From Euglena gracilis (Eukaryota): a stretch of 64,000 bases of DNA. The DNA lies in the NCBI GenBank assembly GCA_039621445.1, contig CP154954.1, positions 38,425,703 to 38,489,702 of the forward strand, written 5' to 3'. The position numbers and the translations under genes were made by a program. Below the pieces are notes generated by a model, which worked only from the letters and a program-made list of their open reading frames with translations, had not been told where the DNA came from and did no database searches. Positions 8,008-45,600 of this stretch are shown piece after piece; the first letter of the stretch is position 1; each line of letters opens with the position of its first letter.

Positions 8008-11000
8008 TTAGTCCAGATTATAAGGTTGATGCGCCAGAACAGGACTTTGCATATCTTCAGATCCCAGGCATTGAGCCCACGACAGTTGTCGACCCACTTC
8101 TCGGGCCAACACAATGCTTTGTCCTTGCCAGCACTCTGCTTCGCAGGATCTTCTGTCCCAGGGCTCCTTCTGACCCAGGATGGCTCGGATGCAGGTCCCC
8201 AAAAAGATTCTGCCTTCATCACCAATGCCACCAAAATAATCCAGGACCAGGGGCACAAGTGACCATCCCAGCCTGCTGCATACATCTTTGTACTTTGTCA
8301 CTTTTTCTTTCTCCTGTCTTTCATGCCAGCGTTCCCAACTTTGATCAGTCACTGGGTGGGACGGCGCCAGTGGATGCCGCACTGAGACATCTATTGCAGC
8401 CGGGCCGTTTGCATCGAACCTAGTGATGAAAACATCCCCAGGTCGTCTTCCATCTCCAGTGCCCTCTTCACGCCGAGCAGTATAGCCTGCCGCCTGTGCC
8501 AGCTGCAGGATGAAGTTTTGAATTCCTGCATGTCGCCGTGCCAAATTGTTTTTTTGTGCAACAAACCAGGTGATTCCCTTGATCATCCATCACTGTCTCA
8601 CATCGTGGACACTTTGCCTCCAAACCTTCGTGTGGAGCTACAACAGTCATCCCAGAGTCCATTGTAGAACTGCTCGGAATTCACCTGGGGGCATCAATGT
8701 CTTTTTTGCTGCACAAGGGTTTGCTGCCACCCACGCCAATGCATGAGGTTTCTGTTGGCTCAAAATACGCACCTTGTCAGCCCCGGTGGAATGCGTTACC
8801 AAGTCAGCTCCTCGTTTCTCAGAGAGCTTGTCGTTCCAGAATTTCTGGGAACTTTCCACTTTCCCCAGGTGAGGAATCCGATTGGAGTCCTGTAGTATCA
8901 AAGTTGTCAAATGACTCTCCCCCGTGATTTGTTCGACTGTGCGACCTGTCAGAACGAAGTCTGATGGTAATAGCTCAAGTTCTTTCGGGAACGAGACACT
9001 GTGTTCTGCTCTTTTGCAGAAATCCAAAATAGCAGCCCATCTGGCCACTGGCCTGGTCTTTATTGCATCGTGCAGTCCCAGGCCTCCCAGTCGAATGGGG
9101 ATGGTGGATTGCTCCCATCGAGCTTTTCAGTGAGCTGTCTTCGTGCAATATTGCTCAAACTGTCACGGACCAGGGCAGAGAAGAGCCGTACCATATCTTC
9201 AGAAGAGTTCAAGCGTTGTTCCTCGTAGAAGATCATTTACTTTGCAGCTGGCAATGCACTGGCGCAACAGGTGGAAACGAATGTGGCCGGAAGGAATGAA
9301 CTGCAGCAAGTAGCACAATTTTTCACAAGCTTTCAATCTGTCCTGCCAAATGGATCGCGCAAACGTGTCATCTCCCGGGTACGTCACAGGTATCCCCAGG
9401 GCTTTGATTCCAGATCCCTCCACAAAGGATGTTGCCGGTATTCGTTGCAACACACTGCTTCCCTGTGGCAATCTGCGAAAGGAATCATTGACGGCTGGGC
9501 CCCACAGCCGACATTTGTCCATGTTCAGACTGACCCCAATCGCAGGACCGTCTGCCAAAAGCATGCGCACCACACGATCCAGCTGTTCCATGGATCCAAT
9601 TAGATGGCAGTCGTCCAGGTACCAGCACTGCCATGGCACCATTTCTGCAATTTTGTTGACCAAAGGTTGCACCGCAATGCAGAAAAGAGCCGGGCCACAA
9701 GGGTCCCCTTGTTGAACTCCCGTTTTGGACCTCAGGCTTGTGTTTCCACAATACAAAGGGGAATGTGAACCATGGCATGATTCAGTCCAAGCTGTCATGT
9801 GTGGTACCTGCTGTCGCACTTGATGTAACATGGGTTCCCGTTTCAATTGATTGAAGGCGTTTGCAAAATCCAGCTGCAGAACAGCCCATTCTGTTTTCCC
9901 TGCCTTTTGCAGTCCTTGAACAATTTGTTGCAGTGCAATACTGGTGAGAGCACAAGCGTCAGAATGGCCTACACCGACTTGCCCAGGCAGCCCGTCAATC
10001 AGAGTGTTTCGTACAGTGGCTTCTTTTAACAGAACTTTGGCAAGCAACCGTCTTAAAACTTCTCCTGCCGCAATTGGCCTGGTTCCTTCGTGTTGCAAAT
10101 CGTTGTCCGTATGCAGCATCACATTACCGGCAGCATCTGTTTGTGGTTTCTTCTTTCTCAACGGCGTCAGTCGTGCTCCTGCCAAGATGGACCCCATTTC
10201 CAAAGGCAGTCCTTGTTGGATTGCCGAGAAGACAAAGGCGGAGATTTCTTCCAGTAAATCATCACCACAGCCCGCAGCCTGTGCGGAGATCAATGTTTTG
10301 AGATGGTCAGCCCGCTCGGTCCTCCTGCTGTTTCGTTTTTGAAGGACAGGATGGCCCGTCTCACGGCCTTTTTCATGTGGGCGTCTCCTTCTTGTCCCTC
10401 AGGGACTGGCAGGCGCACTCTTCCGTCGGGGGGCCCTTTCCCGGGCGGATCTTCTGATGGGTGAAGCAGACGTAAACGCTCACGAATTTTTGCATCATTT
10501 GCATCTTGGACTCCGTCTGACAACATTGCCTGACGCGCCTTTGCCGTTGCCCCTCTTTCCACCAGTTTCTGCATTCTGTTGAGAAAGGCTTCTTGTTGGA
10601 TTTCCTCCTCTTTACTTTTTGCTGATCGGGTTTTGACGCTGGATCCGAAATTCGCTTCCGACGGCCTGGACGACTCCCAGCATTCATGGACGTCTTTTTC
10701 CAGGTACGCCTTGGCTCTGGTACACAGCAGCCGCCCAATTCTGGCCCAGTGGGATCGTCCACCCTGACCAGTGCTTGCCAGGACTGCCTTTGGAAAACAC
10801 CACAAAGAGTGAAAGGCCTCCCAAGAGCCTTCTTGTCGTAATCGTCTGAACAAGAGGGTCAGGGTTCGTGCCACTTCCCCCAGCGCTCCTCTGGGGATCA
10901 ATGTCAACGTGGTCCTCGGTCATGTGCAATGTCATCCCATGCAGGGCGCAAACCTTTGGGACACGGTCCTTGTAAGGTGTGACACCCCCCCAAGTCCACT

Positions 11001-11959
11001 TCCATGCTGCCTTCCATAGGCCCCGGATTCTGCTCCACATCACCATGGGTCAGAACACCTTCTTCCCGCCCAGTTTTCCCATGGCCACGTGCTTTTCTTT
11101 TGTGAGCTTCAGATTCCTTCCTGGGGCCCGGGTTCAGGGGGACATCACCGCTGAAAGCCACACCTTCCCTGCCTGTGGCTAGGTGTTCTTCTGGCACCTG
11201 CAGCAATGTGTTTCCCGGGCCGCAAAGAATGTCTTGTAATTCTGCACAATGCTGTACGTGGGACAAGCACCACCCAGAATTTATTCTTTGCCTTGACCAC
11301 CCACACAGGGTGCACTGTACCCAGAAGGCTTCTCTTTCCTGAAAGAGAGGTGACGTCCCGTCTGGTCCTTTTGCAGGCTCCTCATCCGCCCGTATTTTGA
11401 ACATGTCTTGTACTTGTTGTTCCACCAAGACATGCAGGAGATCACATTCACCACACGGGCCCGCCGTTGGTCCAGGCAGGGGGTTGATGTCACCAGAAAA
11501 AAGCAGCCCCCAAGAGCCCTTGGCCGGGATGTCACGATTTCGTCCCATCTGTTGCCATTGGTCCACGACTTTGGTCAATTTACGTGCCGCCCGCTCGTGG
11601 ACCAGCGTGCCCCCCTGCTGCCGTCGCTCCTGCCGCTGATGCAGGAATTTTTTCTTCCAGCTGCTGAAAGAGGTTTCCTGCAGTGGAGCATTTTCCGGGG
11701 AATTGGGCGGACCAGACCTCGGCTCCCGGCATTTTTCGTCAAACATGACGCCCGTTGGGTTTAACCACTGGCCTTCCACTTTCCAAATCTCTGTGTCAAA
11801 GACAGAGAAAATTTTGTATGGGCCTCCTGGTGCTGGCCGTCTTTTTTCTTGCACCGCCGGTTTTTTCTCCCTTGTGGGGGTACCTTTTTCCATCACTGGG
11901 GTTTGGGATTCCCTTTGTCCTTGCTCAGGCCCGAATTCCAGGGCAAGGGGGGTAATCAA
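8008..11959 (-). pseudogene. CRE polyprotein: 2A region, reverse transcriptase, CCHC knuckle and restriction-like endonuclease (several frameshifts)
   Basis: RT motifs ARLTPLRK, RPIAAGEVLRRL, QVGVG, LDFANAFN, GVQQGDPCGP, YLDD, LNMDKC and ALGIP. Then CPRC..DDQGNHLVCC, and RLE motifs RRH..E..RPGD..IDVSV..K..KY..PLVLDYFGG. Confidence 0.93.
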
Positions 11960-14244: not shown

Positions 14245-16278
14245 ATGTCAGAGGATGACTTTGCTGAGCTGAATTTAGTAGATCAAGCAAATACTGATCC
14301 TGGGATCCCTCGTCATATCCCAATTACTAAAGGCATCTTGAGGCTTGGACGGGTGTATGTTCCTTGCCTGTGCCAGTTGACTGTCTTGCTGAAACCCTTA
14401 ATACATGGGATTTTTTTCCACCATGGCCCTCCATCGATGGTCATTTATTTTGATTTTTGGCCGCATGGCCATTGTTTTTTGGGGGGGGCAGGTGGCCATA
14501 TACGTTATATAATATTCAGCAGGAGGGGGTCAATGGGGGGTGCTCATCTGTTACAGTTGGCATCTTCCTTTCCCTTTGTCCTCCTGCCTTTTTTTGCACT
14601 TGGGCCCTTCAAAATAACCCTGGAAAATGGGCCCAGGTGCTGGTGGCTTTCTGCCCATTTGTGTGAACACCCTTTGTGGGGGCCAAGGTGCGACAGGGCC
14701 ATTTTCACCAAACCCCATCCCTTCAAAATAACCCCAAATCACATGGAAATAAAACCAAACGGCACCAACCTGCTGCCTTCCATTCCATTCCATTCCATTC
14801 CCGTCCTTCCCTTCCAAATTACTACCCCCCCCCCTCTTATTTGACAGTATTTGTCTGTTAGTCGATTCACGGCAAAACAGGTCGATCCACACCTATTTTT
14901 GGCCTACTTTGGGTCACTGATGGACAGGGAAAGCACAAAACAGGATCAGAAGCTACGTCTGGTGTCGGCACAGGTCTGGAGAGTTTGTGGAGCCACACGC
15001 ATAGCCACCCACAGGTGCGGTTGCGGAACGCCCTATCCCTAACCCCATTCTTGACCCTATCCCTAACCCTAACCATGTCCCTACAGTCCCTAGCCGTAAA
15101 TTTCCCCCCCCCCCAGGGAGGGTTTTTTGGGCTCTTGACCAGGGGGGGGGGATTTTCGGCCGTTTCGGGCACTTTGTCCCGTCCCTTCTATTCTTTGAAG
15201 CCATGAAGCCGACCGGGATTCGGAATTCATTTGCCGTATGTTGTGGGGTTGTTATGGTATATTCCCGAACGCCTCTGTTCAGGGCGGTGGGTCTTATTGA
15301 TAGATACATGCCGGGGATGGTTCAATGGACAAAAAACCCCAAAGGATGCCAACTCCTCGACCCAGGGGCCATGCAAGTGGTGAAGCTGTGCTGCCCTTGC
15401 ATGTACAAAAAAAAAGTCCCAACCCACCTGCCTTAGCTGTTCCTCTGGGGCTGAAGGGGGGGGGGAAAGTTTTCGCCCGTTTCGGAGCCTTTTGCAAAAC
15501 CAGGAAAATTCCCAAATTTCAGGGGGGGGGAAATTTTCGGGGGGGGGACAATTTACGGCTAGGGACTGTAACCCTAACCATAAACCATAACCCTAATCCC
15601 TAACCCCAACCCTAACCCTACCCCTAACCCTAACCCTATTCCTAACCGTATCCTTAATCCTGGCCCTAACCCTAACCATATCCAAAACCCTATCCCTAAC
15701 TGTATCCCTGACCCTATCACCCCAAACCCAAACCCTATCCCTAACCTAACCCTAACCATTTACCTAACCCGAACCCCAAACAAAACCCAAACCCTAACCC
15801 AATCCCTAACCCTATCCCCAAGCCCTGTAGCCGGTTTCCTAACCATAATTGGTGTGAATCGACTAACAGACTTGATGCCGTGGATCGACTAACAGACAAG
15901 TAGGGGGTGTTCCCCCCGCGTCCCCCCGCGTCCCCCCGCGTCCCGGATTTTGGCCGGGCACGTTTTTTTGGTTGACCAAAGGAAAATTACACACAAATTT
16001 AGGTGACGCCAAAGAAAACGTGTGGGGGTGGTTGGGCCACGTCCCCCCGTGTCCCCCCCGCGCCCCCCCCCCCCGTGTCCCCCCCCCGCGTCCCGAACCA
16101 CCCCCATACCTATTTTGACCCCCCCCATTAATTGAGCATTTGGGTCTGGGAAGAATTTTTTTAGGCGCCAAAGGCGCTGAAAATTTTTTTCGTCCTCTAT
16201 CAAAGCCAAATTTCGACCCCCCCCTTAATTGACCCCCCCCCTGAACTGAGCATTTGGGGTCCTTTGGGCCACACACAT

Positions 16279-16327
<49 letters not shown>

Positions 16328-19300
16328 TCAGGGGGGAAATGCGTTTCGCATTTTTTTTTGCATTTTTGCGCATTTTTTCAAATTTTTTCGCATTTTTTTT
16401 TCGCATTTTTTTCCTTTTTTTCCGCACGTTTTTTTGCTTTTTGGCACAGTTTTTTGTGATTTTCCAAAATTTTCGCATTTTTTTGACCATTTTTGACCAT
16501 TTTTTGCAAAAATTTGAAAATTTTGACTTTTTTGAAACGTACATTTTCCTCATTATTACATAATTTCTTCAAATTTGGTGCCATTTTTGCACGTTTTTGG
16601 GTAATTTTTGCATTTTCGTGATTTTTGCGCATTTTTTCTCAGATTTTGCACATTTTTGCGCATTTTTCTCCAAAAATGCGCATTTTTTGTGCATTCTTTT
16701 GCGCATTTTTGCGCATTTTTTTCCGAGGCCGGGCGAGCGCATTTGCTCCCCTGCACACATTCCGAAGCACACATGCACACACCCACACCACATCATTTTT
16801 AATGAAAGATTTTTGCACCATATTTTCCAATGATCTCCCCAAATTCTTCTTTTCAATTTGCGAAACTGGTGGAAGATGGACAGCGCCAGAAAAAGATACA
16901 AAAACACCCCCTTTTCCATACTTTTGAGCATATTGCCCTTTTTGATCATTTTTCGATGTTTTGGTGTTTTATGAAAGATTTTCTATACAAAAATCGACCG
17001 ACACTAACAGATTCAGCAGGGGCGCCGGGCGCGAGCGAGCGAAGCGAGCCGCCCGGCGCCCCTGCTGAATCTGTTAGTGTCGGTCGATTTTTCTAAAACC
17101 TATTTTGTCTGGGCCCGACGCCTGTCTTGATATTCATTCGACCGAACCGCCTGGACGGAAATATGGTCAAAAAAGTGGTTTTTGGCCCATTAACGGGCGC
17201 CTGAATGGAAATCGACCGACACTAACGGGCGCCTGAATGGAAATCGACCGACACTAACGGGCGCCTGAATGGAAATCGACCAACACTAACGGACGCCTGA
17301 ATGGAAATCGACTGACATAAACGGTTTCCGATGTCTTGGAAATCGACCGACCTTTTGTGTCCTTTTTTTGAATGCCTTTTGTTCCGTTTCGGGACATTTT
17401 AGGTGTCAGCCTGAAATCCGTTAATGTCGACCCAACCTTTTGTTCCCTTTTTCGGAATGCAGCTTTTCTTCCATTTTGAAACAAACAATCTCTACATCAA
17501 GAACTGTGTCTTAAACGCAGACTCTGCATTTTTTCGGAATGCATTTTTTCTTCCATTTTGCCAAGAACAATCTCTACTACAAAAAAGGGGTGGCGGACGC
17601 CGGTTCTGTCCAAAACCCGGCGTTCCAAACGCCGGTTCCGTCCGAAGGACGGAACCGGCGTTTGGAACGCCGGGTTTTGGACAGAACCGGCGTCCGCCAC
17701 CCCTTGTTTAAAGCGGCGTTTTAGAGACGCCGGGTTCAGGACAGAACCGGCGTCCCCACCCTTCGGTCAAAGGACACTCCCAGGACCAATCTCCGACCAC
17801 TTATCTGCAATGTCACGCCACCTTGCATTTCACCAAATTCCGGCGATCGCGAGGGTATTTCTGGCTGTGTCGATCGCCTGGGTACAAACTCACCCCTCGA
17901 TCGAAAGCTCTTTTCATCAGACGACTGGCGATCACCACCAAATTCAGCGACGCCGCCTGGAGCTCTTACTTTCTGTCACTGGGAAATCCTAATTTCACAA
18001 CTCTGGTGCCCCCCAGAACCCCTCAGGTGGTCGCTTCGAAGAGAAGAAACGTTTCTGTAAGGTTTATTCAGCATCTTAAACCAAAAATCACTGAAAATTA
18101 CCACAAATTTCGACTAAGATTCTGGCCGATCCGACGATCGCGAGCGTATCTCTGGCTGCGTGCAACGTTAGGGTACCAAGTTACCCCTCGATCGAAAGCT
18201 CTTTTCAACAGACGACCAGCGGTGCTCATCAGACCTTTCCACGCCGCACGGTACTCTTTATCAAAATCTGGGCCAATTTCACGAAATTTGGACATCCACC
18301 CCACTGGTCCCCAAATGGCAAAAATCATTGTCCTACATGGTTAAAACAGTCATACCAGGAGCTTTGGGCCACTTTTGGGCACTTTTGGTGACATTTTTAG
18401 GAATGAAAATCGGACGCCGGGTTTTGGACAAAACCGGCGTTCCTAACGCCGGGTTTTACACAAAAATCGTCCATGTCACCCGGACACACCGTGTGTCCGG
18501 GTTATGGGCGCCGAAGGCGCCCATAACCCGGGTACACGGTGTGTCCGGGTTACAATGGACGATTTTTGTCTATATCCGTTGACTAAGAGGCCCAAGACAC
18601 ACACTGTGTCTCGTGGAACTTAGCCACGCAATGTCTACCCCGTATTTTTTTGCGATTTTTTGTCAAATTTTCAGTTCACGATGACACACACTGTGTCTCG
18701 TGGACTGCCAGTCCACGAGACACAGTGTGTGTCCTCGTGAACTGAAAAAAATCAAGAATTCCCACTGGTCCGACCAACAAGGGACAAGTTTTACCACATT
18801 CCGCTACCTGTCCTTGCAGTTTTTTCTTTCGGAAAATGAAGAAGACCGCAAACAGTGTGGACCGCATGCTCCCCCGACCCCCGAAACCAGATGAATTTGT
18901 TGCTACACTGGAAAAGTATTTGGTCGATTTGCAGAAGGGCCCTGCTGTTGACCCAATACACGGTACGTTGTTGGCCAACGTGTTGGAAGAGAAGCCAAAA
19001 GGGACCGCAATTGCTGAGCGTGTAGCTGTTACACGCCTGTTGGAGTTCCAGCAGGTGTGTAAACATCTGAACGCTCAGTATGAGGACCTGGATGGCTTTT
19101 TTTCCGCATGGGCTGGTTGGGTCATTGACCCCAGATATTTGTTTGATGAGGCTACCCTCATCAATCAAGCTGAGCAACAACGCCGGGGCACAGTGTGGCA
19201 CCACATTCAGTTTCGAGACATACCTGTACCATCTCAGCTGTTACAGCTCACGGTTGTCCGGTGACCATCTTTCCACTGCCCTGCTGCATTGCATTAGATG

Positions 19301-22300
19301 TAGAACACCTCGCATTTCTGGCAAACACCTTTTATTTTTCAGTCCACGAGACACAGTGTGTGTCCCAGTCCACGGGGACACACACTGTGTCTCGTGGACT
19401 CAGTCCACGAGACACAGTGTGTGTCTTGGGCCTCAGTCCACGGATATTAGGACAGAACCGGCGTCCGAAAACCCGTGGGGGGGGACGCCGGTTCTGTCCT
19501 GAACCCGGCGTCTCAAACGCCGGTTTTATCTCAAGAACTGTGCCTAAAACGCAGACTCTGCATTTTTTTAGAAACACAGATTTTGACCAAAGCCATGTTG
19601 CCAGGAACACAGCCTTGCAATAGAATAGAATTGCAATACAGGCGTCGAGCCCAGAAAATAGGTTTAACGTGGCCAAATTACTCCTCACCCGAAAGCTTTT
19701 CTTTCAGATGACCAGTGATAACAACTGGTTCAGGGCAAATTTGCCGAATGCTTTTTCTGAAGTCCCAGAAAATGATAATCTTCAGCTCCGTCCTTCCGTC
19801 TGTTCCATCAAAGTTCAGCCAGCTGTGATCACCTGACCACAAAATTTGGTTTTTTTCTGGTCCAAAACGCCTCCACAACCCCATAGGACCAAAAATGTCT
19901 TCAAAAAAGGGAGATCCAAAATGTCCAAAAAGTCACCAAAAATTCCCAATCTGACCAGCAACAGATTTCAATGGAATGGAAATCGACCGACATAAACGGG
20001 CGCCTGAATGGAAATCGACTGACATAAACGGGCGCCTGAATGGAAATCGACTGACATAAACGGGCGCCTGAATGGAAATCGACTGACACAAACAATTTCA
20101 GGCTGAAATCCGTTAATGTCAGTAGAATTTCAAGACAGGCGTCGGGCCCAGAAAATAGGTTTTAAGATTTTTCAAAAATGAGCATTTTTGGATTAATTTT
20201 CTACACACAAATTGTGGCTGAGCCCAGATTTCAGCCTGAAAACGTGTTCAGCCAGGGGGCCCCCGAAGGGGGCCCCCTGACGTTTTCAGGCTGAAATCTG
20301 GGCTCAGCCACAATTTGTTTGAAAACGTGCCTAACCACAGATGCCTTAATTGAAAACGTGTCATTGCCACAGATGCCCTCATTGAAAACGTGTCACCCCC
20401 CCCCTTTTTTTTTTTTTTTTCCCACTATGGCGAAACGCACGGCTAACTTTGTGAATGGTCTTTTGCCACCTCCCCCTAGGACGGAACTGTTCCTGGCTGC
20501 TCTCGCGGTATACCAGCAAGATGCCAAGAAGCCGAAGGTTGACCCCCTTCTGGCACCTTGCTGGCACAGGGCAACGTAAAGAAAAGGTCCGGCTCCGTGG
20601 GAGCAGAGGCTGCTGTTGCCAACTGTTTGGAGTTCGCCAAACTGTGTCAACATCGGAAGCATCTTATCCTGAGCTGCATGCTTTCTTTGTTGCCTGGATG
20701 GGATAGGAGCTGGAACCCAGCCTGTTGTTCGATGAGGCGAGCGTCATTTAACAATGTGTGGCTCAACGTGAGCAGCAGTCGGGAACTTTGTTCGTTTCAG
20801 GGAATTGTTCGGCAACCTCTTTTCTTCTTTGCCATTCCCAAAAATCCAAATTGGAGCTGAACAAAGTTGTGTGTGACGCCTGTGGTTTGGCATATCATTT
20901 TCATTGCCAAGATTTGCGGTGGCCACCAAAGTTTGGCTCTTTTTTTGTGTAAAGCGTGTCGTGTTCCGTGAGGTCCGCCACTCCGTGTCGTTGTGCTCCA
21001 AGGCAACCTAGCTTTCTGTTGTGTTTAGAGTGCCCTCGATCCGCCTCACTCGTTGAGGACCACCCGGCCTCGCAACCGCCCGCCGATTTTTCATGACAGC
21101 GTTTTTTGCTTTTTACTCAGGGTTGCCACAGATGCCTCATTGAAAACGTGCCTGACCACAGATGCCTTAATTGAAAACGTGTCATTGCCACAGATGCCCT
21201 CATTGAAAACGTGCCTAACCACAGATGCCTTAATTGAAAATGTGTCATTGCCACAGATGCCCTCATTGAAAACGTGTTCATGACCACGAATTTCAGGGCA
21301 GGCATTTGGCGGGCTGAACATGTTTTTAAGGCACGTTTTTAAAGAAATCAGGGATTTTTGAACAATTTTGCCCGATTTTCCAGCCGTTTGCCCGTCCACA
21401 AAACCAGCCCCCCCCCCAAATTTCGAGGTAGGGGGTGGGGGGGGGGGTCCCTCATCCATCCTCCCCGTCGGGCCAGGACTTTGGGAGATAAATAATACCC
21501 AGGGGTGTTCACCTCCTCCTCTGTCCCTCTACCCCCGGGGCACGAGGTATCAAAAAAAAAAAGTGGCAAGTTTTGGTTCATATCAGGTGGCCGCACCGTC
21601 CCCGGGCGGAATATTGGCCATGCTGGTTCTGGACGGGCCGACCTCTGGAGGTCGACAGAAATGGCCACTGACTGTGCTGCATTATCCCTCGGGCCGACCT
21701 AGTCAGCCCGACCTGTTGCTGCGGCCGCGCGAGGGGGGGGGGGCTCGGACCTGGCCAATCCACGCACCAATCCCCCATTGTATCTGCCGGCTGTAACTTC
21801 ACCTTCCAAAGCTGGTGTCTCCTCCGAGTCCCCCCCCCCACGTCCCAGACACACCCTATGGGTGGGGCGGGAGGGTCCAACCACACCCCACCATGCCGCA
21901 AAGGGGCAAAGCAACTCCCTGGAGATTTCACATCCAAGGACCTGATTGCCTCTTCATTCAACTGTTCCATTTCTTTCCTTTTCCCCCTCACAGAGAACAC
22001 CCAGATTATGCTGATGTTGCCATCAAGTCTGCCAAATTTGAGGCCATGGTGTCTCGAAAACATGCACCCAAGATGTCACAAAGCATCAATTTCTTCACCC
22101 CAATACCTCCTGGAACCCACAACCAGACAATGGCAAGGGAAAAGTCAAGGCTCAGCAAAAAAAATAATCTTCGCTCGGCCAGTGTCCTGGGACCACAAGG
22201 GGGGGGGGGGAATGACGGGGGGTTGCTTGGTTTTTTTTGCCATTTGAGAGAAAGTGAACTGGAGTGGGAGGAACATGGGGGGAGTGGGCAATAATTGAGG

Positions 22301-25300
22301 ACAAAGTGTCAAAATTCACTAGTAAGAAACACCATGTTTGCTTGGGGTTTTCACCAATGCTTTGATCCATTTGGTGTGGCAGAATCCAACGACGTTCCAA
22401 CCATCATCCATCCACCGCCATCACTGCCCTTTGCCATCTTGCAAGCAACAATCAAGAAAGTCACCAGAGGGTGGGCCATCATCGACAACAAGAGCACAAA
22501 TGGGGTCATGGTAAATCGCCAACCTATCCAGGCAGATGTGCCGATGCCCATCAAGTGTGTTCTGTCTTGTCAGGTTACCATGCTCCTCCTCATGAGACCC
22601 CCCCTGGCCAGCCAAAAGCAGGCCCTTTGACTGAAGCCAACCCCTCCCCCATTGATACCCTGGAATTCACCTGTTTGTGGAGCACCCACCCACCCACCCC
22701 TTGGGGTGCTCCCGGGGGGGGGAGGGGGGAGGCCCGGGGTTCATTCGGGAGCGTGATTTGGCCCTCCTTATTTTGCACACACAAGGGGATTTTGTTATTT
22801 TTGGCGGGGGTCCGGGGCATACAATTTCTTACCGACCCTGGGGGGGTCACTCCACTTTTTTAAAAACCAGTCAGTCACCCATTTTCAAAAAACCAGCCAG
22901 TCACTGCCCCCGGGGGGGGGGTCGGCCACTCAGAAAAACGGCCACTTTCCAGTTACTTTAGGCCATTTCAGGCCAAAAAAAAAATTTCCGGCGCCTTCGA
23001 CACCGGGGTCACTCAAGCCACTTTTGCCCGCTCCTGGCCGCCCCCCCCCCCGGGGGGGAGGGGGTCCGGGCCCAAAACCAGTCAGTCACTCTGAAGAAAC
23101 TAGTCACCCACCCCCCGGGGGGGGTCGGTCAGTGCTTTAGCAATTGCCTGGTCCGGGGGGGGGGGGGGGGGGGTGGCAGCCCCCCCCCCCCCCCCCGGAG
23201 GAGGCCGTAGGTCGACTAAGTTCGCATATTGGGGTTCATACGGGGGCGCGATTTGGCCCTCCTTATTTTTCACACACAAGGGGATTTTGTTATTTTGGGC
23301 GGGGGGGGGGGGTCCGGTGGGTGGCGCCCCCCCCCCCCCCCCCGGAGGCCGACTAAGTTCACATATCGGGGTTCATTTTTTGCAAATGGACCCCCGAACG
23401 GGGGGTTTCTGAAGGCATTTGGGTGGGTTTCGAGTCATTTTCCTCCATATTTGAATGAAAATTTTTGGAGGGGGGGGGCTTAAAATTTTTAGAGGGGGTA
23501 GACTGAAAATTGGTGGTCGGAGCGACTAGTCGCTCCGACCACCAATGGTCGCTAGGCCATCACCAACAGTCGCTAGCGACCACCAAAAAATCCATCACCA
23601 ATTTCCCGCAATGAGCCCATCACGGGCAAATACAGGGAGATGTTTAACCCCCCAAAATAACACCTTGATAATTGTGAACGGCCGGCAGCAAAAATTACTC
23701 GCCACTGGCGTCATGGTCCGAAGGCCAGGCCCCAGTCCTATTGAATGTCCAGGCCCTGGTCCCCCCTGGAGCCAAAAAAGCTTCAGTGGCAGAGAGCCAT
23801 GGGCAGACAGGGGGAAGCGCACCTGGGGGGGTTGCAGTCCTATGGCATACCCCTCTGGCGTCTTTGGCACCGCGGGGGTCAGTGGAATTTTGAAAGAAAA
23901 ATGGGGTTTGGTGGGCGGCCATTACACAAAAATCGTCCATGTCACCCGGACACACCGTGTGTCCGGGTTATGGGCGCCAAAGGCGCCCATAACCCGGGTA
24001 CACGGTGTGTCCGGGTTACAATGGACGATTTTTGTCTATATCCGTTGACTAAGAGGCCCAAGACACACACTGTGTCTCGTGGAACTTAGCCACGCAATGT
24101 CTACCCCGTATTTTTTTGCGATTTTTTGTCAAATTTTCAGTTCACGAGGACACACACTGCGCAGTGCCCTAATTCCCCCCCCAAATTAATGTGCAGTGCC
24201 CTGTTTGTGCGCACCCGCCAAAGGTCCGAAACTAGCTCCCTAAAAAGTGCGCACCCCCCCAAAGGAGAAACTGTCACATCTCAGGTCGGAAAGCACACAC
24301 AATTCTTCCATCCTCCAATCCCAAATTTGACACATTCCACCAGATGTGTCTCGTGGACTGGCAGTCCTCGAGACACAGTGTGTGTCCTCGTGAACTGAAA
24401 AAATCAAGAATTCCCACTGGTCCGACCAACAAGTGCCCCCCAATAACTTGGCCTTTCGGCAACTTTTGGCTTAGAGCATAAAGGTTTCTCGTGGACAAGT
24501 TTTACCACATTCCACTACCTGTCCTTGCAGTTTTTTCTTTCGGAAAATGAAGAAGACCGCAAACAGTGTGGACCGCATGCTCCCCCGACCCCCGAAACCA
24601 GATGAATATGTTGCTACACTGGAAAAGTATTTGGTCGATTTGCAGAAGGGCCCTGCTGTTGACCCAATACACGGTACGTTGTTGGCCAACGTGTTGGAAG
24701 AGAAGCCAAAAGGGACCGCAAAGGCTGAGCGTGTAGCTGTTACACGCCTGTTGGAGTTCCAGCAGGTGTGTAAACATCTGAACGCTCAGTATGAGGACCT
24801 GGATGGCTTTTTTCCCGCATGGGCTGGTTGGGTCATTGACCCCAGATATTTGTTTGATGAGGCTACCCTCATCAATCAAGCTGAGCAACAACGCCGGGCA
24901 CAGTGTGGCACCACATTCAACTTCGAGACATACCTGCCTTCTACCGTTTACAGCTCACGGTTGTCCGGTGACCATCTTTCCACTGCCCTGCTGCATTGCA
25001 TTAGATGTAGAACACCTCGCATTTCTGGCAAACACCTTTTATTTTTCAGTCCACGAGACACAGTGTGTGTCCCAGTCCACGGGGACACACACTGTGTCTC
25101 GTGGACTGCCAGTCCACGAGACACAGTGTGCGTCTTGGGCCTCAGTCCACGGATATTATCCCCAAAGGCTTTGACATCCTGCCGAAATACAACCAGATCT
25201 TACTTTGGTTTTGTGCCCATCATTTTCCCCTCCTACAGAGATGGCGATGTCATCACATTTGGAACCGACCAGTCAGACCTTGTGTACACTTTTGAGGTGT

Positions 25301-28300
25301 GTTCCAAGTTCATGTGGGTTCAGAGCCCAGCTGATTGTTCAATTGGTTTTGTCTGATTTTGCGGTATTAATGTAGTTTGCAATGTCAATTGGGGTTAACC
25401 ATGAGCCTTTTGCAATGCCTTGACCATGCCCCCCCCCCCCCCGACCTCCCCAAGCTATTCCCATAAGGGACAGGAATACCCCCCAAAGTGGCCACCCTCC
25501 AGGCACTGTGGGACCCCAAAATGGCCACTCTGGAGGGGGGGAGACACTTTGGGGGGGGGGTTCAAATTTTGGCCTTCAGTGCCTTTGGCGCCGAAGGAAA
25601 ATGGCCACTTTGAGGGGGGGGGGTGAACGAAAATTTGCCAAACCTTTTGGCTATTTTGGGGGGGTGAGGGTGGCTCACTGTCATAGCAGTTTTATGAGAG
25701 GTCAAAAAAAGTGCTCAAAATCGACGTTTTTTTGGACGCTTTTTGGACTTTTTTTTTTGGACGTGTTTTGCACATATGGCATAAAGTGGAACCCTTACAC
25801 TTACACCAAACACTCACAGTTTCGGGGATGTTTTGCCATGATTTTGGACACTTTTGCCAAAAATTTTGGAACCTTTTTGAAAATAAAAAGAATGGGGTTT
25901 TCAGAGATTTGGACTCCGTTTGGAACTTTTTTGCAAGTTTTTGGGACTTGCCAGTTTTTTTGTTCCCCTTTGCCTGCAGTGTGTTTTTTTTGAATACCTG
26001 TCCATCCAAACGCCGGCATAGCTGGCAGCTCGTGTAAAACGCAGCCAAAAAGATGGGTTTTTTTTGAAATATTTTTTATTATTTTTTTTTAAAAAAGCCA
26101 GGTACACCGGGTTGAATGCTGCACACGCAGCCCATTGACCAAGAGGGAGGTATCGCCGTCTGACCAAGGACAAACTGGAGGACATCTTATGCAGTAAAAC
26201 TGCGTCTTGTACGCATACTCTGTCCTGAGACTCAGACAGACTCAGGACGGAGTCCCCGGGGCCGGGGGGCCCACTAGCAGGGCTAGCTGGTGGAAAATTT
26301 TCAGTACCCACTTGCCTAAAATGCCCATTTTGGCAACAAATTCAGCCCAAAAAAACATGTCACCTGCACCCCCCTATTCCCCCCCAATTGGCTCATCGGC
26401 CTCCGGGACAAGACGACTGTTTCGAAAGTTTTAAAAATGTGCCAAATAAAGAAAAGTCATTGCAAATCCCACTATGCACAGGTCTTCCCCCTGTTTGTCC
26501 CCCCCCCCCCCGTAATGTTGCCACCACCTCACCCCACCCTCCCCACAGTGGCCACCCTTCAGGCACCGTGAGACCCCAAAATGGTCACTCTGGAGGAGCG
26601 GACACTTCGGGGGGGGAGGGGTCAAATTTTGGCCTCTTTGGCATCGAAGGCAATGGCCACTTTGAGGAGGGTAAACCAAACTTTGGCAAAAATTTTTGGC
26701 CACTTTGTTGGGGATCAGGGTATGATCTCATTTGATCAGCTGTGTTGCTCTTAAGAGCTGTGGGGTTGCACCGATTTGTTCAGAGATTGCACAGCCAGTG
26801 ATTTGTTGGATTTAGAGAGCTTTTGTAAAATGTCCCAACATTTTTTTTACTGCCAAGTGTCAAAGTCTCCATAACGGAATCTCAAAAATTTTGGTGAAAG
26901 GTCCCAGGCGTTTTGGCAAAAGAGCCCAAAATTATGGCAAAGTGGTCAACAATTTTGGCAGGAAGTCCCAAAATTGTGAGTGTTAGGTGTAAGTGTGGGG
27001 TGTGTGGGGGGATGTGTAGGGGGGAAACAGGCACCTATGCCGACCGCAGCCGACCGCGGCCGACCGCGGGTTTCAGGACTGTCATAGGTGGGGTGCCGAC
27101 CGCATCCGACCGCAGCCGACCGCGCAACTTTTTTCTAATTGATGTCAATTTTTCAGTGAGAATGAGGAATTAGGCTCATTTTTATCCCAGATGTTGAGAT
27201 TTTTCTGGCTCATCTGGCTCATGTTGTCACTTTTGGCCACTTTTTGCCATTTTTGGTCGCTTTTGTCCCCTTTTGGCCCATTTGCCACCATAATTCACCC
27301 ATTTTGACCTATTTTGACCGTTTTTGGCCACTTTTTGCCCACTTCTTGTAATTTTGGGCCATTTTGTCCTGCTCTTGGGCTCTGTGCTCGGAGGTGCCGC
27401 CAGCTGCGGAATGGTGAGCTTCTGCCTTGGCAGTGGGGCAAGGGGTGGAGGGATGGAGTCAGCAGCGGGGGCCATTGAGTCCGACGGCTCGTGTCGCATG
27501 ATGTTTTGATTGAACAAAGCATATGGCGGAGTTTCTCGATGAGGAGCACTTTTTCGCTGAGGCCGGCCAGCTTGGAGGTGGCATTCTGGGCCATTTTGGG
27601 CCATTTTTGACTATTTAAAGCCGCTTTCGACCTTTTCTTTTGTTATTTTTGCCCATTTTTTTGGTCTCTTTTTGGTCCAATTTGACCATTTTGAGCATTT
27701 TGCGCCAGTTTGTTGCCAAAAGTGAACAAAAGCTGCTAAAGTGACCCAAATTGGCCAAAAGCAGAGTCATTTTGGGCCATTTTGGGGGCATTTTTTTTGT
27801 TATTTTTGTCTGCTTTTGGAACTTTTGGCGATTTTAACCATGTTTTGCCACTTTTAGGCCATTCTTAGGTCAAGTTTGGCTGCTCTTGATGTCAAAAGCA
27901 ACAAAAAGATGTTTAAAGTGGCCTGAAAGTGGCCAGAAGTGGGTAAAAATGGCCAAAAGCAGAGAAAAGTAGTCAAAAGTGGGTTAAAGAGGCCAAAAGT
28001 GGTCAAAAGAGGTCAAAGCAAAGCAAAAGCTGGCCAAAAGCAGCCAAAACACAGCAAAAAGTGGGCAAAAGCAACAAAAGTGACCAAAACAAAGCAAAAG
28101 GCAGGAAATAATGGGCAAAGGCAGCAAAAGTCGACCAAAAGTCGGCAACAGTGGCCAAAAGCAGTCCAAAAGCATCAAAAGCTGGCCAAAAGCAGCGAAA
28201 AGTGGCCAAAAGTCGGCAACAGTGGATTGTGTGATTGTTATATATGCTCATTTTTTGTTGGCCTGCCCCCCCACCTACAGCCAACTACCTTGCTGACCGC

Positions 28301-34537: not shown

Positions 34538-35478
34538 CACCAGCCTGTTTTTTAAGGTGGTGCCAACCCCACCCCGGGGGTGGTGCCTGCCTGGGCAGGC
34601 CCCCCAAGGCACTCCCGATCCGCCCCCCCCCCCCCCGGGGGAGGCCCCCAGGCAAAAAAGCCCCATCACAATCCCCGGTGTCTTTTTCACCTGGGAGCCA
34701 AAAGTGGCCTTTTTTCAAAGGAATTTGCCTGGGCGCAGGCTGAAATCCGACCCCCTGAGGGGGTCGGATTTCAGCCTGCGCCACGCACATTCCTTCGGAC
34801 CCCCCTCTCCCCCCGGGGTTGGTAAAAAAAAAACAGCCTGGCACGCACGCACACACGCACACACAACACCCCCAGACCCCCCCAGTCTCAAAACCTCATT
34901 ATATCTGGGTGTTTTTATTTTTTTGAGACTCCTTCTGGGTCTTTGCATAGAGCATAGAGCACTGTCCCCCGACGATCCAGGACCCCTCCCCCCCAGCAAT
35001 TGGTCCTGGTGGGGTCAAAAGGGCCATAAGTGGTGTCCATGTGGGTGACTTTTGAAATGAATTGAAATGATTTCAAATAAGATGCAATTAAATTGATGCA
35101 TGTAGATCCGTGGCCTCGATGTTGATTTGTCCCCAAAGAGAAACACATAGCAGCCCCACACCTCTGCCCCCCCCCCCCCGGGATGAAACTGTGTGACCTG
35201 GGGGTGGGTTACACGGATTGCACAAATCGCCGCTTTTACCACCATTTTGGATGAGGTTTTTGGTTTCATATAGGAATCAGGATTAGGATTATGATTTTCA
35301 TCCCTGTTTTGGGCGCTTTTTTTGACAAAATTAGGTTAAATTCGACGTAACTTTTCGTCCAACTACAGCTGAAATTTCCGGCCTAATTTAGGCCTAAAAC
35401 TCAAGAGGACCAAACCCCCGATTCCCAGGTTCCATCACCGGATTACTCTGAAATTCAGGGGTGCCAATGTGGTTGATG

Positions 35479-38900: not shown

Positions 38901-41319
38901 CCGAAGAATGGTTGAGAGAGTTGACCAGGAGTTGGGAAACACAAATGGCTCTGACGTTTCACAAGTTGAGCGCAAGTCAGCGACTCCGGGAGGGGCCTTC
39001 TTGAAAAATGGGGGGGGGGAGGGAAATGCGAGCATTTTGCCAGTGCTGAGACATTCAGGCGGGCATTCGAGGCGGTTGACCGCCGGGGACGGCCTGCCAC
39101 AGCCATGAAACGCCCGGGGCGGTATCGACAGGGGCAGGGCTCTGCCGCTGGGCAGGGGAAGGGGAGGATCAGAGGGGGCGGGAGAGGTGGGCCCCAGCGT
39201 GGGGCTCCAGGGGCTTGGATTTGGACCGCACCACGCAGGCCGTTGTCGGGGGGGGCGCGGGGGAGGTGTACTGTCGGCGGGAGGGGAGTGCTGTGGGGGG
39301 GGGGGGGGGAGAGGTAGTAACTTTTTTTTGGTGAGGGGGCGTTTGTGGGGGTTTGGCCCCAAACAGAAAACACATCAAACAATAATGGCCCTGCATCAAT
39401 ATGCACGAATTCCATCCGTGCTCGCATTTTTATGACTCGCACATGTTCTCAAATACAAAAATGCAAATATCACGACAACTGGAAACGATGTGTAAGAACG
39501 ATATTAAATAATCACCCATTTTGGGGTTCACTCTTGCAAGTTTTTTTTAAATGCGTCAATTTTGCTCAGGATTTTCATATTTACAGAAAAATTTTCGCTG
39601 AAAAATTGGCATTTGGCAATTCTTAGAACCTTTTTGTTTCCCATTTTCCTCACAGCACTTTGAGTGTGTTGGTAGCTTAAGGACCCCCGGGGGGGGGGAC
39701 TGGCTAGCCAATCAGCTAGACACTGGAAAAAGTGGACTAGCTAGACCCCCCCGGGGGGGGGGGGGGGTCCGGGGGTCCCCCGGACTGGAAAATTTTTTCC
39801 CCCGGCGCTGTGCGCCGGAGGAAAAATGAGGTTTTTAACAGGTTTTTGGCTAATTTTGTTCCAAAAATTCCCAAAAATGGCCAAAAACGGGCATTTTGGG
39901 CCATTTTGGGGGGTCCCAAAAAAATTTTCGGCACTTCGCGCCGGTCACTGGAAAAAAAAATTTCCACTAGCTAGCCCTGCTAACAGACCCCCCCCCGGGG
40001 GGGGGGTCTGCTAGCAGCTAGCAGCTAGCAGACCCCCCCGGGGGGGGTCTGCTAGAAAACCCACTAGCCAAATTTGGACTAGCTGCAGTCCAGCCCCCCC
40101 GGGGGGGTACTGCATTCCCTTAAGCAAAAGCCTGGTTGGTAGGGGACAAATTAAAATTCGGAGGGGGTGGAGGAAAATGCAGGGCAAATCATATAACCCC
40201 CCAAAAGACATCCCCCAGGCCGAGGCTCCACAAATATATGCATATTGCAGCTCCCACCCATATGCCCCCCCTTGGGGGCCATACGGTTGGATGATCAAAG
40301 GGGGGGTCATACGATGGGACCCAGGTCCGACTTTCCCGAAAAGTCGGTGTTATTGTTTGGGTTAGGGTCACGACTGGACCGCCGTAGGGGAACTATTGTA
40401 AAGAATTTAGGACAGGTTAGGCTGCGTTCCGGACGAATTTTTGGGGAACTTGGGCCGAATTTCAGGCATTTTGGAGGCAAACAAGTGACCAAAAAAATCT
40501 TCCCACAACGGGACCCTAACTTCCGGCCGAACTTGGTCCCCAAAAAGAGCCAAGTTTCGGCGCGCTATCCGAACCCTAACCCTATTCCTAAAAATGAGAG
40601 CCCACTCTCCCCGAATCCTCCGACAATCGCCGGAAACTGCGCGCTTCCCTGGCGCCGCTCTCCTCCTTTATGCCCATTTAGGAGTATCCAAATCGGTCCC
40701 CCCCTTCCAGGGTACAGTGCGGCTAAAAACTACGGAAGACAGAAACTTGGGCAAAATACCCAAATTTTGCCATATTTTTCTCTCTCGTAATTTTCTCACT
40801 CCGTCGGTTTCCGACGCCCTCTTCCAGCCCACTTCCGCTTTGTGCCCAAAAGAACACAATACTCATCCCAATTGAATGCCAGTTTCTTCAATGGTATATG
40901 CTCAGCAGCTCCTTGAAAAAACGGGCGACCGGCATCAAGCACCTGGGGAAAATCACAGCAAAAATCGCTCTGCATTAGAAATTACTGACACAATTCTATC
41001 AGAAGCTGCAGCGAACGGCCTCCATTCTGCTTCGCCAGCGAATATTTTGCCCATGCCTGACCGATCTTGAACGTTCCCCCATTTTTTTTGCAAGCGTTGC
41101 TGGGCGGGTACGTGCCACAACACCTCGAGCGATTGCAGCCACTGGGGGACAAAAAAATACGTTGAACACGCAACCAGGACAAAAATGTCGCTCACCTGTG
41201 CCGGAGGTCAATCCTTCATGGGGACCAGATTTTGCCAAAATGAATTTTTTCAAAATAAAAAGTTTGCCAAAATTTTTTTCTCATATTTTTTTTGCCGTAA
41301 TTTTTGTCTTCCGTAATTT

Positions 41320-42606: not shown

Positions 42607-45600
42607 CACACCACACCCATCACACGCTCTCACGCTCACTGTTTGCTGGCCCCCGCTCGCTCGCTTTCTCACAGTCGCACGGCTGCGCACACCTTGTACG
42701 CGCCTTGGGCCCGCCAGTGCGAAATCGGGACGGGGGAGGCGGCGCACGGCACGGGGTGGCGGACGAGGGGCGGCGAGCCGCTGCGGCCCCCGCCCCGGCG
42801 CAGGACCGGGCCCGCCTCCGGGCGGGAGCGGCTGGCGGCCCGCGGGGAGGCCAGCAGGGGCGTCCGCCGCGGTGTGGAGGACTGCGGCGGACGCACACAG
42901 GAGGCGGGGGGGGGGGAGGGCGGCTGAGACTCGTCCAGCGCTGTGTGGGGTTCCTGCTGGCTGGACATTTGTGTCCTGCAGCACTCCCTGACAGCCTGCC
43001 CCCTCCCCCCCAAATGAACGTTCATACATCCTGAAGAAGGAACGAAAGCGTCATCGGCCTTTTCGTTGGAAAACTTCCACACACATGCCATTGAAATTTT
43101 ACAAGGATCACCCCCCCCGCATTGGGGGTTTTTCCTGCGAAAATGTGCAGGGCACCAGTATGTCCACGCCCCCCCCCCACCACACGCTTTTCAACGGAAT
43201 TTTCCTCCTTCTTTGCCAACTTCTCCATAGGCACCCAAATCCGCAAACACATAAAACACCAATTTGATTTCTGGGTTTTCAGAATCAGTGAGTAGCACCC
43301 CACCATTTGGGTTTGCCACATCGGGGGGGTGTTCAAGCTCACAATAACCCACCCTCTCCCATGGTTCAAAAAAATGCACCGTCAAATTTCTTTCACTGTA
43401 CATTGTAAGTGGCATGGTCAGATAGATAGGCTAGTGGATGTCAATCCCGACTTAGTGGGAATGGGCTTTTTGAAAGCTCGTGGAATCGAAACACGATCCA
43501 TCTATTCCAATTTAGGATTTTGATGGTTTTCCAATTTTGGAACACAATTATCAACACATATAAATAACCTTCAAAATTTTGTTCCACAAAAAAACTTTTT
43601 GTTCACAATCTGCTTTAAGAAGGTGGTTGGGAATTCCCCCTGCACTGCATTTCACAGCTGCCAACTATTTGGCGCCCCAGGGGGTGCACAAATTAGCCTA
43701 AAATTAGGCCGAACTCCTAACCCTGAACCTATTCCATCAACTGGGGGGGGGGCAAGTAGTAGGCAGCTGCCATATTGCATATATTACATATACCATATGT
43801 AATATATGCAATATGTATATGTATGTAAACATATATATGTACATATGTGTATATGTGGCAAGACTAACCCACTGAGCCCCCCCGGGGGAGGGCCCAGTGG
43901 TTTAACGTGGGGGTGGGGGTCCAGCTTCTTTCTTTCACCAACTCCAAATTTTGGTTTTCGCGCCGCGATTTGTATGTATTCCAGTTGATTTTGGGGTAGG
44001 GTTCGGGTTAAAATAAGGAATAGGGTTAGGGTTACGATTTAGGAAAGAAGTTAGGCCGAAATCGGGTCGAAATTGGTGTGAAAAATTGTCCCTCAAATTC
44101 GGCCCGAATTCGGCCGAAATCCGGCCTGATGGCCTGATTTACCCTAACCCTAACCCTCACCCTGAACCCCAACTTCACTCCCTCACCCGAACCCTAAGCC
44201 TATTCCTAAAAATAACCTCATATTTACTCCGCCGGCGAGAAAAAGTTTCTGGGTGTGGGGTTGGTTTCCCCAGAAAATCCAAGGGGGGGGGCCAGTAGTT
44301 TCACCTGGGCGGCCAAGTCCCCGCTAGGTACAACTACTGGGACCCCCCCGGGGGGGGGGCGGTGAGTTAATCTTGCCATAGAATTATATATATGTTGATG
44401 TACACATTTTTATGTATATATACATATACATATGTTGTATATGTATATGTGAAATGTATATATACAAAATGTAGTATGCATGATGTAATATATATGTATA
44501 TGTATATGTGTATGTTATGTATATTATATGTCTATGTATATGTATATGTATTGTATATGTAATATGTATATGTCTCTGTTATTCTATGTATATGTATTTA
44601 TATGTTCTCTTGATGGCTGTCTCTGTATATGCTCCGGGTTGTTCCTGTTGCGTATATGAGAAGTACTGTACATGTATATGTAAGTATATGTATATGTATA
44701 TGTATACTGTATATGTAATGTACCTTGTGTCTATGTCTCTGTATCTGGTCTAAATGTCTAGGTGTATGTATAATGTATCATTGTTATCCTACATGTTAAT
44801 CTATGTATTGCATTGTATCATTAATATGTCTCTGTCTCTGTAGAGTACTGTCTATGTCTCTGTACTAGTCTCTGTAGATGTCTATGTTAGGGTCTCTGTC
44901 CTTGTCCGCATGTCTGGTCTGGGCTTGTCTCTGTCTCTGTCTCTGTATCTGTCACTGCTGAGAAGAATCTTTTTTTTTTCTCTTCCAATCTATCTCTTTC
45001 TGTGATCCATGGCCATTATCTGTCTCTTCACTTTTTCTTTTTGTCCGTTGGGCGCTTCTCCACCGGTGTTTGTGGGCTTTCTTGGCCATTTGCGCCGCAC
45101 GAATGCCCCCCCTGGGTCACTCACCCTCCAGCAGAAACCCCCTTCAAAAAACACCCACCACCACTCCTGCCCACCCCCCCCGGACGCAAACACCGGCTGT
45201 CCCTCAATGGATTGGCTCGAGCAGTGTTCAAACTGGGCCCCCCCCCCCCCCCATGTGCATGGGCCCCCTTTAAGGACCTTCCCCCCCATGTGCACTTAAT
45301 TAAAGCACTCTACATAATGATTCTTTTCCCCATTTTTTTATTCGCAAATACTAGCATGATAGTTCACATCTTTCTCCCCTGTTTATATGCTATTCGTAAA
45401 AATCATCATTCTTTCCCCATCCCATTGTATTGTGACATGACATTTTTCCAACTTTGGGGGGTGCGCTTTTTTCCTGGTGGGGCGACATATTCGGCATCCT
45501 TGGGGGGGGGCACTATTAGGGCACAAAATGGGCATTGCGAATTATTAAGAGCTTGAACCCTTCCAAAAGCCCAACACCCATCCACACAGATCCGCACGTC

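Follow-up and report, generated by a model that had tools for sequence, protein, structure and literature searches.

Palindrome-ended mobile elements at TA sites in Euglena gracilis point to a structural variant of tyrosine-recombinase elements

A stretch of the Euglena gracilis genome (GenBank assembly GCA_039621445.1, contig CP154954.1, forward-strand positions 38,425,703–38,489,702; 64,000 nucleotides, here called the window, in which all positions are counted from the first letter) carries four families of repetitive element, H1 to H4, which differ in sequence but follow one unusual plan: a long palindrome at the left end and, directly inside it, an inverted repeat (IR) whose partner forms the far terminus. 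Two of the families also hold the remnant of a gene whose full-length homologues are predicted to be tyrosine recombinases (YRs) with the fold of Cre. We read H1–H4 as one group of mobile elements that would be moved by such a Cre-fold YR and would integrate as circles, a reading to which we give a probability of about one half and within which H1 and H2 are best seen as fully non-autonomous, and H3 and H4 as internal-deletion derivatives. The combination points to a new structural variant of YR elements, of a poorly known kind, rather than to a Helitron.

All elements lie on the plus strand, and three of them are nested. H1, the outermost (16986–20164), spans about 3.18 kb with H2 and H3 counted in; H2 (17577–19528; 1952 bp with one TA counted), whose limits come from a base-exact joint described below, sits within H1; and H3 copy a (H3a; 18459–19449; 991 bp with one TTA counted), also delimited by a joint, is inserted in an iteron of H2. 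H4 (20204–21341), placed like H1 from the sequence, starts 39 bp to the right of H1 and is a separate, adjacent element. A second copy of H3 (H3b; 23925–25158; 1234 bp) has the same palindrome, IRs and open reading frame (ORF) as H3a, to which it is 97–99% identical except for two additional internal insertions, one of ~185 bp (24160–24344, in the second internal hairpin) and one of ~60 bp (about 24434–24493, upstream of the ORF). A comparison of the region with the window by blastn gave no further copy of H1, H2 or H4 in the 64 kb, and no nucleotide similarity between the families at E ≤ 1e-3. A preliminary description of this DNA, made without database searches, had already claimed four elements of different sequence on one asymmetric plan, and in this it was right, down to the places of the palindromes and the pairing of each following IR with the far terminus; the side-by-side layout that it gave them has to be replaced by H3 within H2 within H1.

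From left to right, the common plan reads TA, palindrome (P), TA (TG in H4), subterminal IR, body, terminal IR and TA. The flanking TA lies at 16984–16985 in H1 and 20202–20203 in H4, and the right ends of these two elements close with the TA at 20163–20164 and at 21340–21341, respectively. Directly after the flanking TA, each family starts with a (C/T)A-C-A-rich sequence, the C/A-rich run being the outer arm of P, and ends on the right with TTA, as an end comparison showed for all four, again in keeping with the preliminary description. The same comparison found that in none of the four families is the outer left terminus an inverted copy of the right terminus. The targets of the five copies are YTA or TTA.

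The palindromes measure 104–133 nt across the four families and are near-perfect. In H1 (16986–17095), two 46-nt arms (16986–17031 and 17050–17095; 98% complementary) enclose an 18-nt GAGC-rich loop; in H2 (17581–17709), 63-nt arms (17581–17643 and 17647–17709; 98%) leave only a GAA triloop; in H3a (18459–18570), a core at 18474–18554 with a GAA triloop extends in the fold out to 18460–18569; and in H4 (20204–20321), 42-nt arms (20204–20245 and 20280–20321; 98%) surround an inner G/C stem, again with a GAA triloop. Folded as single-stranded DNA, the palindromes of H1, H2, H3 and H4 reach –61.5, –91.3, –62.4 and –67.3 kcal/mol (z = –18.3, –21.4, –15.7 and –18.8), with none of 200 shuffles as good in any case, and mismatched bases lie near the base of the stems. 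At the tip, a GAA triloop with a C:G closing pair recurs in all four families – in H1 on a 2-bp mini-stem within the GAGC-rich loop – so that the preliminary description was correct on this point as well, the fifth copy, H3b, having AAA instead. Of 13 perfect triloop hairpins with a stem of at least 9 in the window, three have GAA, and each of these is a palindrome tip. GNA triloops with C:G closure are known as unusually stable DNA mini-hairpins, and the sharing of a C-GAA-G tip by palindromes whose stems are unrelated in all four families suggests a role for the folded form. An Rfam search of the whole window gave no match.

When the whole of H3a is folded as a single DNA strand, P is followed, after 2 nt, by a stem formed by the subterminal IR and the 3′ end (20 shuffles; z = –24), an order that brings the 5′ and 3′ termini together across one continuous strand. 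In this fold, the right arm of P and the subterminal IR are thus complementary to both extremities of the strand, 5′ and 3′. The H3 body contains further near-perfect hairpins (18668–18748, 19341–19400 and, in H3b, 25047–25108), made of its own ~25-nt motif, which is partly palindromic and present in both orientations.

The IRs are ~31–57 nt long in H1–H3. In H1, the subterminal repeat (17096–17135) faces the terminal one (20125–20164), with a 31-nt match of 94% (17105–17135 against 20125–20155) that reaches the terminus with a 2-nt indel in the end comparison. The corresponding pairs are 17711–17761 and 19477–19528 in H2 (41 nt at 95%, 17721–17761 against 19477–19517), and 18573–18617 and 19404–19449 in H3a (31 nt at 100%, 18587–18617 against 19404–19434). 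In the present copy of H4, the IR comprises only about 13 nt, read by eye, and falls below the 20-nt reporting limit of the inverted-repeat search.

Each family also has short repeats of its own. A direct-repeat search located four 32-bp iterons on the left of H1 (17209–17322) and four on the right (19980–20093), in direct orientation to one another, and arrays on the left (20319–20393) and right (21126–21277) of H4, likewise in one orientation. The iterons reappear in the palindrome of their own family – the arms of the H1 palindrome, for instance, include the H1 iteron – as the preliminary description had noticed, and the repeat search and family-wise z-scores agree: the left arm of P resembles the right-end region of its own element, in direct orientation, with z = 8.0 (H1), 22.1 (H2), 4.0 (H3) and 7.7 (H4), against –1.1 to 4.2 for the 12 comparisons across families. 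In H2, where the left arm of P is 81% identical to the right end (z = 22.1) and the right arm 74% identical to the subterminal IR (z = 23.9), both in direct orientation, the palindrome looks like a copy of both element ends joined head to head.

That P and body are inserted together is indicated by empty sites in contigs from four public sequencing runs of one organism (X1, X2, X4 and X15), which were compared with the window over 16000–26000. At the H2 joint (17574→19527), 1952 bases are skipped and two letters, TA, are common to both sides (1, 0, 1 and 1 contigs in X1, X2, X4 and X15, X1 and X2 each adding a single loose end at 17576). At the H3 joint (18455→19447), 991 bases are skipped and three letters, TTA, are common (8, 9, 9 and 0 contigs; 26 in total over three DNA runs). 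Both are paralogous empty sites, that is, other copies of the host element without the insertion, and from both, palindrome and body are missing together, just as both H3 copies hold them together; the hairpin thus travels with the IR-bounded unit, which was one of the points raised by the preliminary description. The TA (H2) or TTA (H3) occurs once in the empty and twice in the filled site, a comparison that cannot tell a duplicated TA from a crossover within TA. Joints of H1 (16970→20174; 10–12 contigs per DNA run) and H4 (20201→21345; 3–4 contigs per DNA run) lie within 3–15 bp of the ends (8–15 bp for H1). For one ‘opposite strands’ joint in H4 (20329→21315), H4 copies elsewhere with a longer subterminal repeat are an equally good explanation.

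The families H1–H4 are clearly very abundant. Summed contig depth in X1, which is not equivalent to copy number, amounts to 84,996–1,149,097 in 13 element bins (17002–21343), compared with 115–356 in unique bins (21678–22679), and drops from 940,099 to 13,271 across 21343/21344, at the right end of H4. H1 and H4 are set in a T-rich repeat (16334–16985, 20165–20203 and 21342–21420) that is itself very abundant (summed depth 2e5–9e5), and another repeat of very high depth occupies 22680–23347. The high abundance of the host repeats and the triple nesting suggest that insertions cluster in repeats.

The only coding remnant carried by the elements lies in H3 and H4 and corresponds to the N-terminal ~135 aa of a protein family with full lengths of ~440–490 aa. 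H3a retains the N-terminal ~130 codons (18836–19234, plus strand; by tblastn and translation) with a frameshift near codon 117; in H3b the corresponding ORF (24547–24969, plus strand) is open; and in H4 (20427–20823, plus strand) it is decayed, with stops and frameshifts, but still 37–47% identical to family members by tblastn. All three lie downstream of P and read away from it, at the same position and in the same orientation. The YR ORF starts ~380 bp inside the left terminus, and no gag-like ORF precedes it. With ten family members as queries, tblastn matched only H3a, H3b and H4 in the window, and only over the first ~135–175 residues. Since two families without nucleotide similarity keep the fragment at the same place, it would be the elements’ own gene rather than cargo. 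Neither a Rep/helicase nor a DDE domain was found in the 64 ORFs of at least 150 aa in the window, and no reverse transcriptase (RT) was detected in the five copies by blastx with the YR family as target or by scanning the ORF at 17823–18344 with Pfam. Downstream of the H4 remnant, in the second frame of the plus strand (20850–20960), is a Cys/His-rich, PHD-type zinc-finger-like segment unmatched in any of the 83 proteins compared.

Residues 1–135 of the H3b ORF, searched against 1.84 billion representative sequences (E ≤ 1e-3), yielded 75 homologues, each matching by its N-terminus. The best match, 97% identical over 134 aa, is a transcript-derived E. gracilis protein in EukProt. Eleven of the 75 are at least 300 aa long, the longest having 491 aa; the other 64 are shorter, match by the N-terminal domain only and may be truncated copies like those in H3, or products of cut contigs. 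The full-length members (about 395–491 aa) have no other domain that could be found and come from contigs of 1.5–2.9 kb; one of them (P0045, on a 1.9-kb contig) is filed under the plant Genlisea aurea and is possibly a protist contaminant.

What these proteins probably are emerged from predicted structure. An AlphaFold model of one full-length member, P0007, made from 13 aligned sequences (mean predicted local distance difference test score, pLDDT, 75.8), retrieved Cre (1nzb_A) as the first Foldseek match (E = 4.2e-6, probability 1.0), and of the 49 matches at E ≤ 1e-3, all those listed are YRs; the fold matches include recombinases of the Cre, Xer and Tn1549 kinds and the integron integrase IntI (2a3v). 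VIA-align superposed model residues 31–422 on Tre/Cre with Z = 18.5 (289/320 residues aligned); in the aligned row, model residues 54–394 run along Cre 37–326, which, judged from the end points alone, puts Y392 roughly opposite Cre residue 324, which we take to be the catalytic tyrosine of Cre. R234, K267, R361/R362 and Y392 are invariant in all six full-length proteins compared. A Cre-fold tyrosine recombinase, with the two-domain fold and an R...K...R...Y signature, is thus well supported for the full-length homologues by the model, according to which the part retained by H3 and H4 corresponds to the N-terminal, DNA-binding half of such an enzyme. At the level of sequence profiles, Pfam gave Phage_integrase in two of 19 proteins, both below threshold (17.9 and 19.3 bits), and weak helix-turn-helix matches, while an ESM look-alike cluster with ALOG and Phage_integrase domains provides a lead only.

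How could such an enzyme use these ends? If the ends were joined, their sequence would give a single palindrome of ~200–260 bp – terminal IR, TA, P, TA, subterminal IR – with two symmetric TA sites. We envisage that the element moves as a circle in which this palindrome is rebuilt, that the cognate YR would bind the family-specific motifs common to P, the IRs and the iteron arrays, and that strand exchange would take place between the TA beside the base of P and a target TA, often within YTA, leaving TA on both sides. The retained C-GAA-G tip and the abutting ends of H3 in its fold suggest that P works folded, be it in a hairpin of single-stranded DNA or in a cruciform. The families do form the diversified mobile group with family-specific repeated motifs that the preliminary description proposed, albeit probably with a different enzyme.

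Several observations weigh against this reading. At the site itself, the two flanks of the crossover TA lack the inverted-repeat relationship of a canonical YR core site, and the common core of 2–3 bp is shorter than the usual 6–8 bp; some integrases of bacterial conjugative transposons need only about 2 bp of identity, and if this holds, a 2-bp core is not unprecedented. A TA duplication is, moreover, also a hallmark of DDE elements of the Tc1/mariner type. The contigs used for the empty sites all come from one organism, hence are not independent of the window; the H1 and H4 joints are not base-exact, the letters between joint and element end being unread; and the joints listed (15 of 995) include no circle junction. 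On the side of the enzyme, tblastn finds no YR remnant in H1 and H2, and the assignment to the YRs is structural rather than based on a sequence-level match: the His normally found in the H-x-x-R motif is not apparent, and profile searches of PDB sequences (one chance match, E = 2.1), PHROGs and NCBIfam returned nothing relevant. Finally, no autonomous copy with both ends was found, and searches of metagenome, viral and prokaryote genome contigs with a six-row alignment or with P0083 gave no relatives; with no autonomous copy, the link of the YR gene to these ends rests on two families in one window.

The obvious eukaryotic point of comparison are the Cryptons, whose movement has, to our knowledge, never been mechanistically shown. 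The present elements resemble them in that H3 and H4 bear the remnant of a predicted YR gene, with homologues in which no other domain was found, and in having a short direct repeat at both junctions, which is compatible with recombination of a circle with its target. The likeness to a transposon with a YR as its only enzyme derives from the full-length homologues, however, since the elements themselves hold N-terminal fragments only. Cryptons have been described as having no terminal inverted or long repeats and as flanked by terminal direct repeats of 4–6 bp (PMC3212892, PMC3627910; statements from the literature rest here and below on excerpts of the cited papers), whereas H1–H4 have IRs of ~13–57 nt, a terminal palindrome of 104–133 nt and iteron arrays, and share only TA or TTA (2–3 bp) between their junctions. 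Because of the IRs, and because the direct repeats are not 4–6 bp long, we do not file H1–H4 as ordinary Cryptons, a distinction drawn from descriptions of Cryptons rather than from their sequences.

Another point of comparison are the DIRS-1-like retroelements, which also employ a YR, and which have inverted end repeats together with an internal stretch complementary to both termini. Like DIRS-1, which is reported to target its own copies (PMC5633606), the present elements tend to land in their own kind, as the three nested insertions illustrate. One could therefore imagine that the same YR integrates a circle made from complementary DNA (cDNA), with the right arm of P and the subterminal IR serving as a splint comparable to the internal complementary region (ICR) of DIRS-1, which is likewise stated to be complementary to both extreme ends (PMC5633606). 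The report of DIRS-like elements in E. gracilis (bioRxiv 10.64898/2026.05.21.726589), the transcript origin of the closest match to the H3 ORF and the presence of an RVT_1 ORF elsewhere in the window would all fit. We nonetheless regard this route as unlikely: H1–H4 are short, none of the five copies has a remnant of RT, RNase H or gag, and the YR ORF, instead of following a gag-like ORF, begins ~380 bp inside the left terminus. The complementary stretch occupies the left end rather than a place ahead of the right repeat, and the full-length homologues are found on contigs of only 1.5–2.9 kb. Longer fused forms of the YR protein were not found either, although this is weak evidence.

A second explanation divides each element into two. 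The IR-bounded body flanked by TA on both sides is what Tc1/mariner elements and their Stowaway-like MITEs (miniature inverted-repeat transposable elements) look like, and the palindrome might be a separate foldback element at a neighbouring TA, with TA on both sides of it in H1, H2 and H3. The single TA in the H2 empty site would be in order, and the YR fragment would be cargo, for which MarCry-1_FO, a mariner–Crypton fusion with 16-bp terminal inverted repeats (TIRs) and TA duplications (PMC3212892), offers a precedent. Against such a composite speaks the fact that P and body are absent together from the empty sites and present together in both H3 copies. The outer left palindrome is unrelated to the right end, and in no family is the outer left terminus an inverted copy of the right one; P differs from family to family instead of representing one common foldback element; it lies on the same side of the ORF in all three ORF-bearing copies, from two families; and a DDE gene is lacking, as the ORF survey showed. 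We therefore think it improbable that a mariner-type transposase accounts for these elements.

Less probable still, in our judgement, is a rolling-circle element with an HUH enzyme, of which a Helitron2 or Helentron would be the nearest known form and which the preliminary description had proposed beside a hairpin-primed group. Read on the minus strand, the element would have its terminal hairpin as terminator or primer, and the YR piece would have been captured. The asymmetric terminal IR, and the position of the hairpin, between subterminal repeat and terminus, do recall Helitron2, and on this strand the order of 5′ asymmetric terminal inverted repeat (ATIR), 3′ ATIR, hairpin and end agrees with the published scheme (PMC3627910); the conservation of the GAA triloop, like the abutment of the ends, would also favour a single-stranded stage. 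What stands of the earlier comparison is the geometry, on the opposite strand; the dimensions differ, as that description itself remarked for the hairpins. Helitron2 has ATIRs of 8–15 bp, the 3′ one located 20–30 bp from the end, upstream of a short hairpin that fits into this distance (PMC3627910), whereas IRs of ~13–57 nt and hairpins of 104–133 nt are several times larger. TA or TTA is duplicated or common at both junctions, unlike the insertions of Helitron2, which fall between two Ts or between A and T (PMC3627910). The proposed HUH enzyme also fails to appear: none of the 64 ORFs has a Rep/helicase remnant, the element-borne remnant being that of a Cre-fold YR instead, and a captured gene piece would hardly be expected to recur, at an unchanged position, as one and the same YR fragment in two families without nucleotide similarity. 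Replitrons, which according to the available part of their description (PMC10288648) end in short direct repeats and have a Rep of the HUH type, are unlike H1–H4.

The integron attC site and the CTX-phage attachment site provide a bacterial parallel: in both, a YR acts on an imperfect palindrome of ~60–140 nt at one end of the integrated unit, with the crossover near the base of the stem. A YR associated with an end palindrome, and mismatches near the base of its stem, are features that the elements in E. gracilis would share, the use of a folded substrate being an analogy. Beyond the difference between bacteria and a eukaryote, H1–H4 have many TA targets rather than a single attachment site. 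A bolder proposal, to which we give little credence, is that H1–H4 are eukaryotic YR transposons with a folded-DNA site, in which a GAA-capped hairpin or cruciform would undergo exchange at the TA of the inner stem as a counterpart of integron attC and CTX, and that they may even be a MITE-like source, long looked for, of the nonconventional introns of euglenids. The latter thought comes from the fold, which joins both element borders on one strand, as such introns also pair their ends. The consensus reported for nonconventional introns (CA at +4,+5 and TG at –7,–6; PMC3935182) does not, by eye, fit the ends of H3, and the link is only speculation.

No published description of these elements was found in full-text searches of the literature, although supplements on the termini of Cryptons (Additional file 1 of PMC3212892) and on recombinases that abound throughout the Euglena genome (PMC12455990, Supplementary Fig. 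S5) may bear on their novelty. A preprint on euglenid extrachromosomal circular DNA and a paper on a giant virus do not mention such elements in the parts that were accessible, and a 2013 article (PMC3935182), again as excerpted, states that transposable elements had not yet been identified in euglenid genomes. If our reading is true, E. gracilis harbours a very high-copy group in which precise TA junctions, iterons particular to each family and a conserved, foldable palindrome go together with a Cre-fold recombinase. This would change the picture of eukaryotic YR transposons, as represented by Cryptons, which have been described without structured ends, and it would define DNA sites for binding, cleavage and circle formation.

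The window contains further hairpins. One at 34732–34782, with a 24-bp stem and a TGA loop, has no matching end repeats in its vicinity; its arm includes a ~12-nt motif that is common to H1 (17406–17428 and 20098–20120) and the arms of the H4 palindrome. Other perfect hairpins, none with the element plan around it, lie at 43771–43815, 23509–23546 and 39984–40067; their stems are of 21 bp in an AT-rich hairpin, of 17 bp in one with a CTAG loop, and otherwise made of G/C runs. On the minus strand, 9199–11959 holds three consecutive ORFs, of which one of 364 aa (9199–10293) matches RVT_1 with E = 7.8e-16 and marks a retroelement unrelated to H1–H4.

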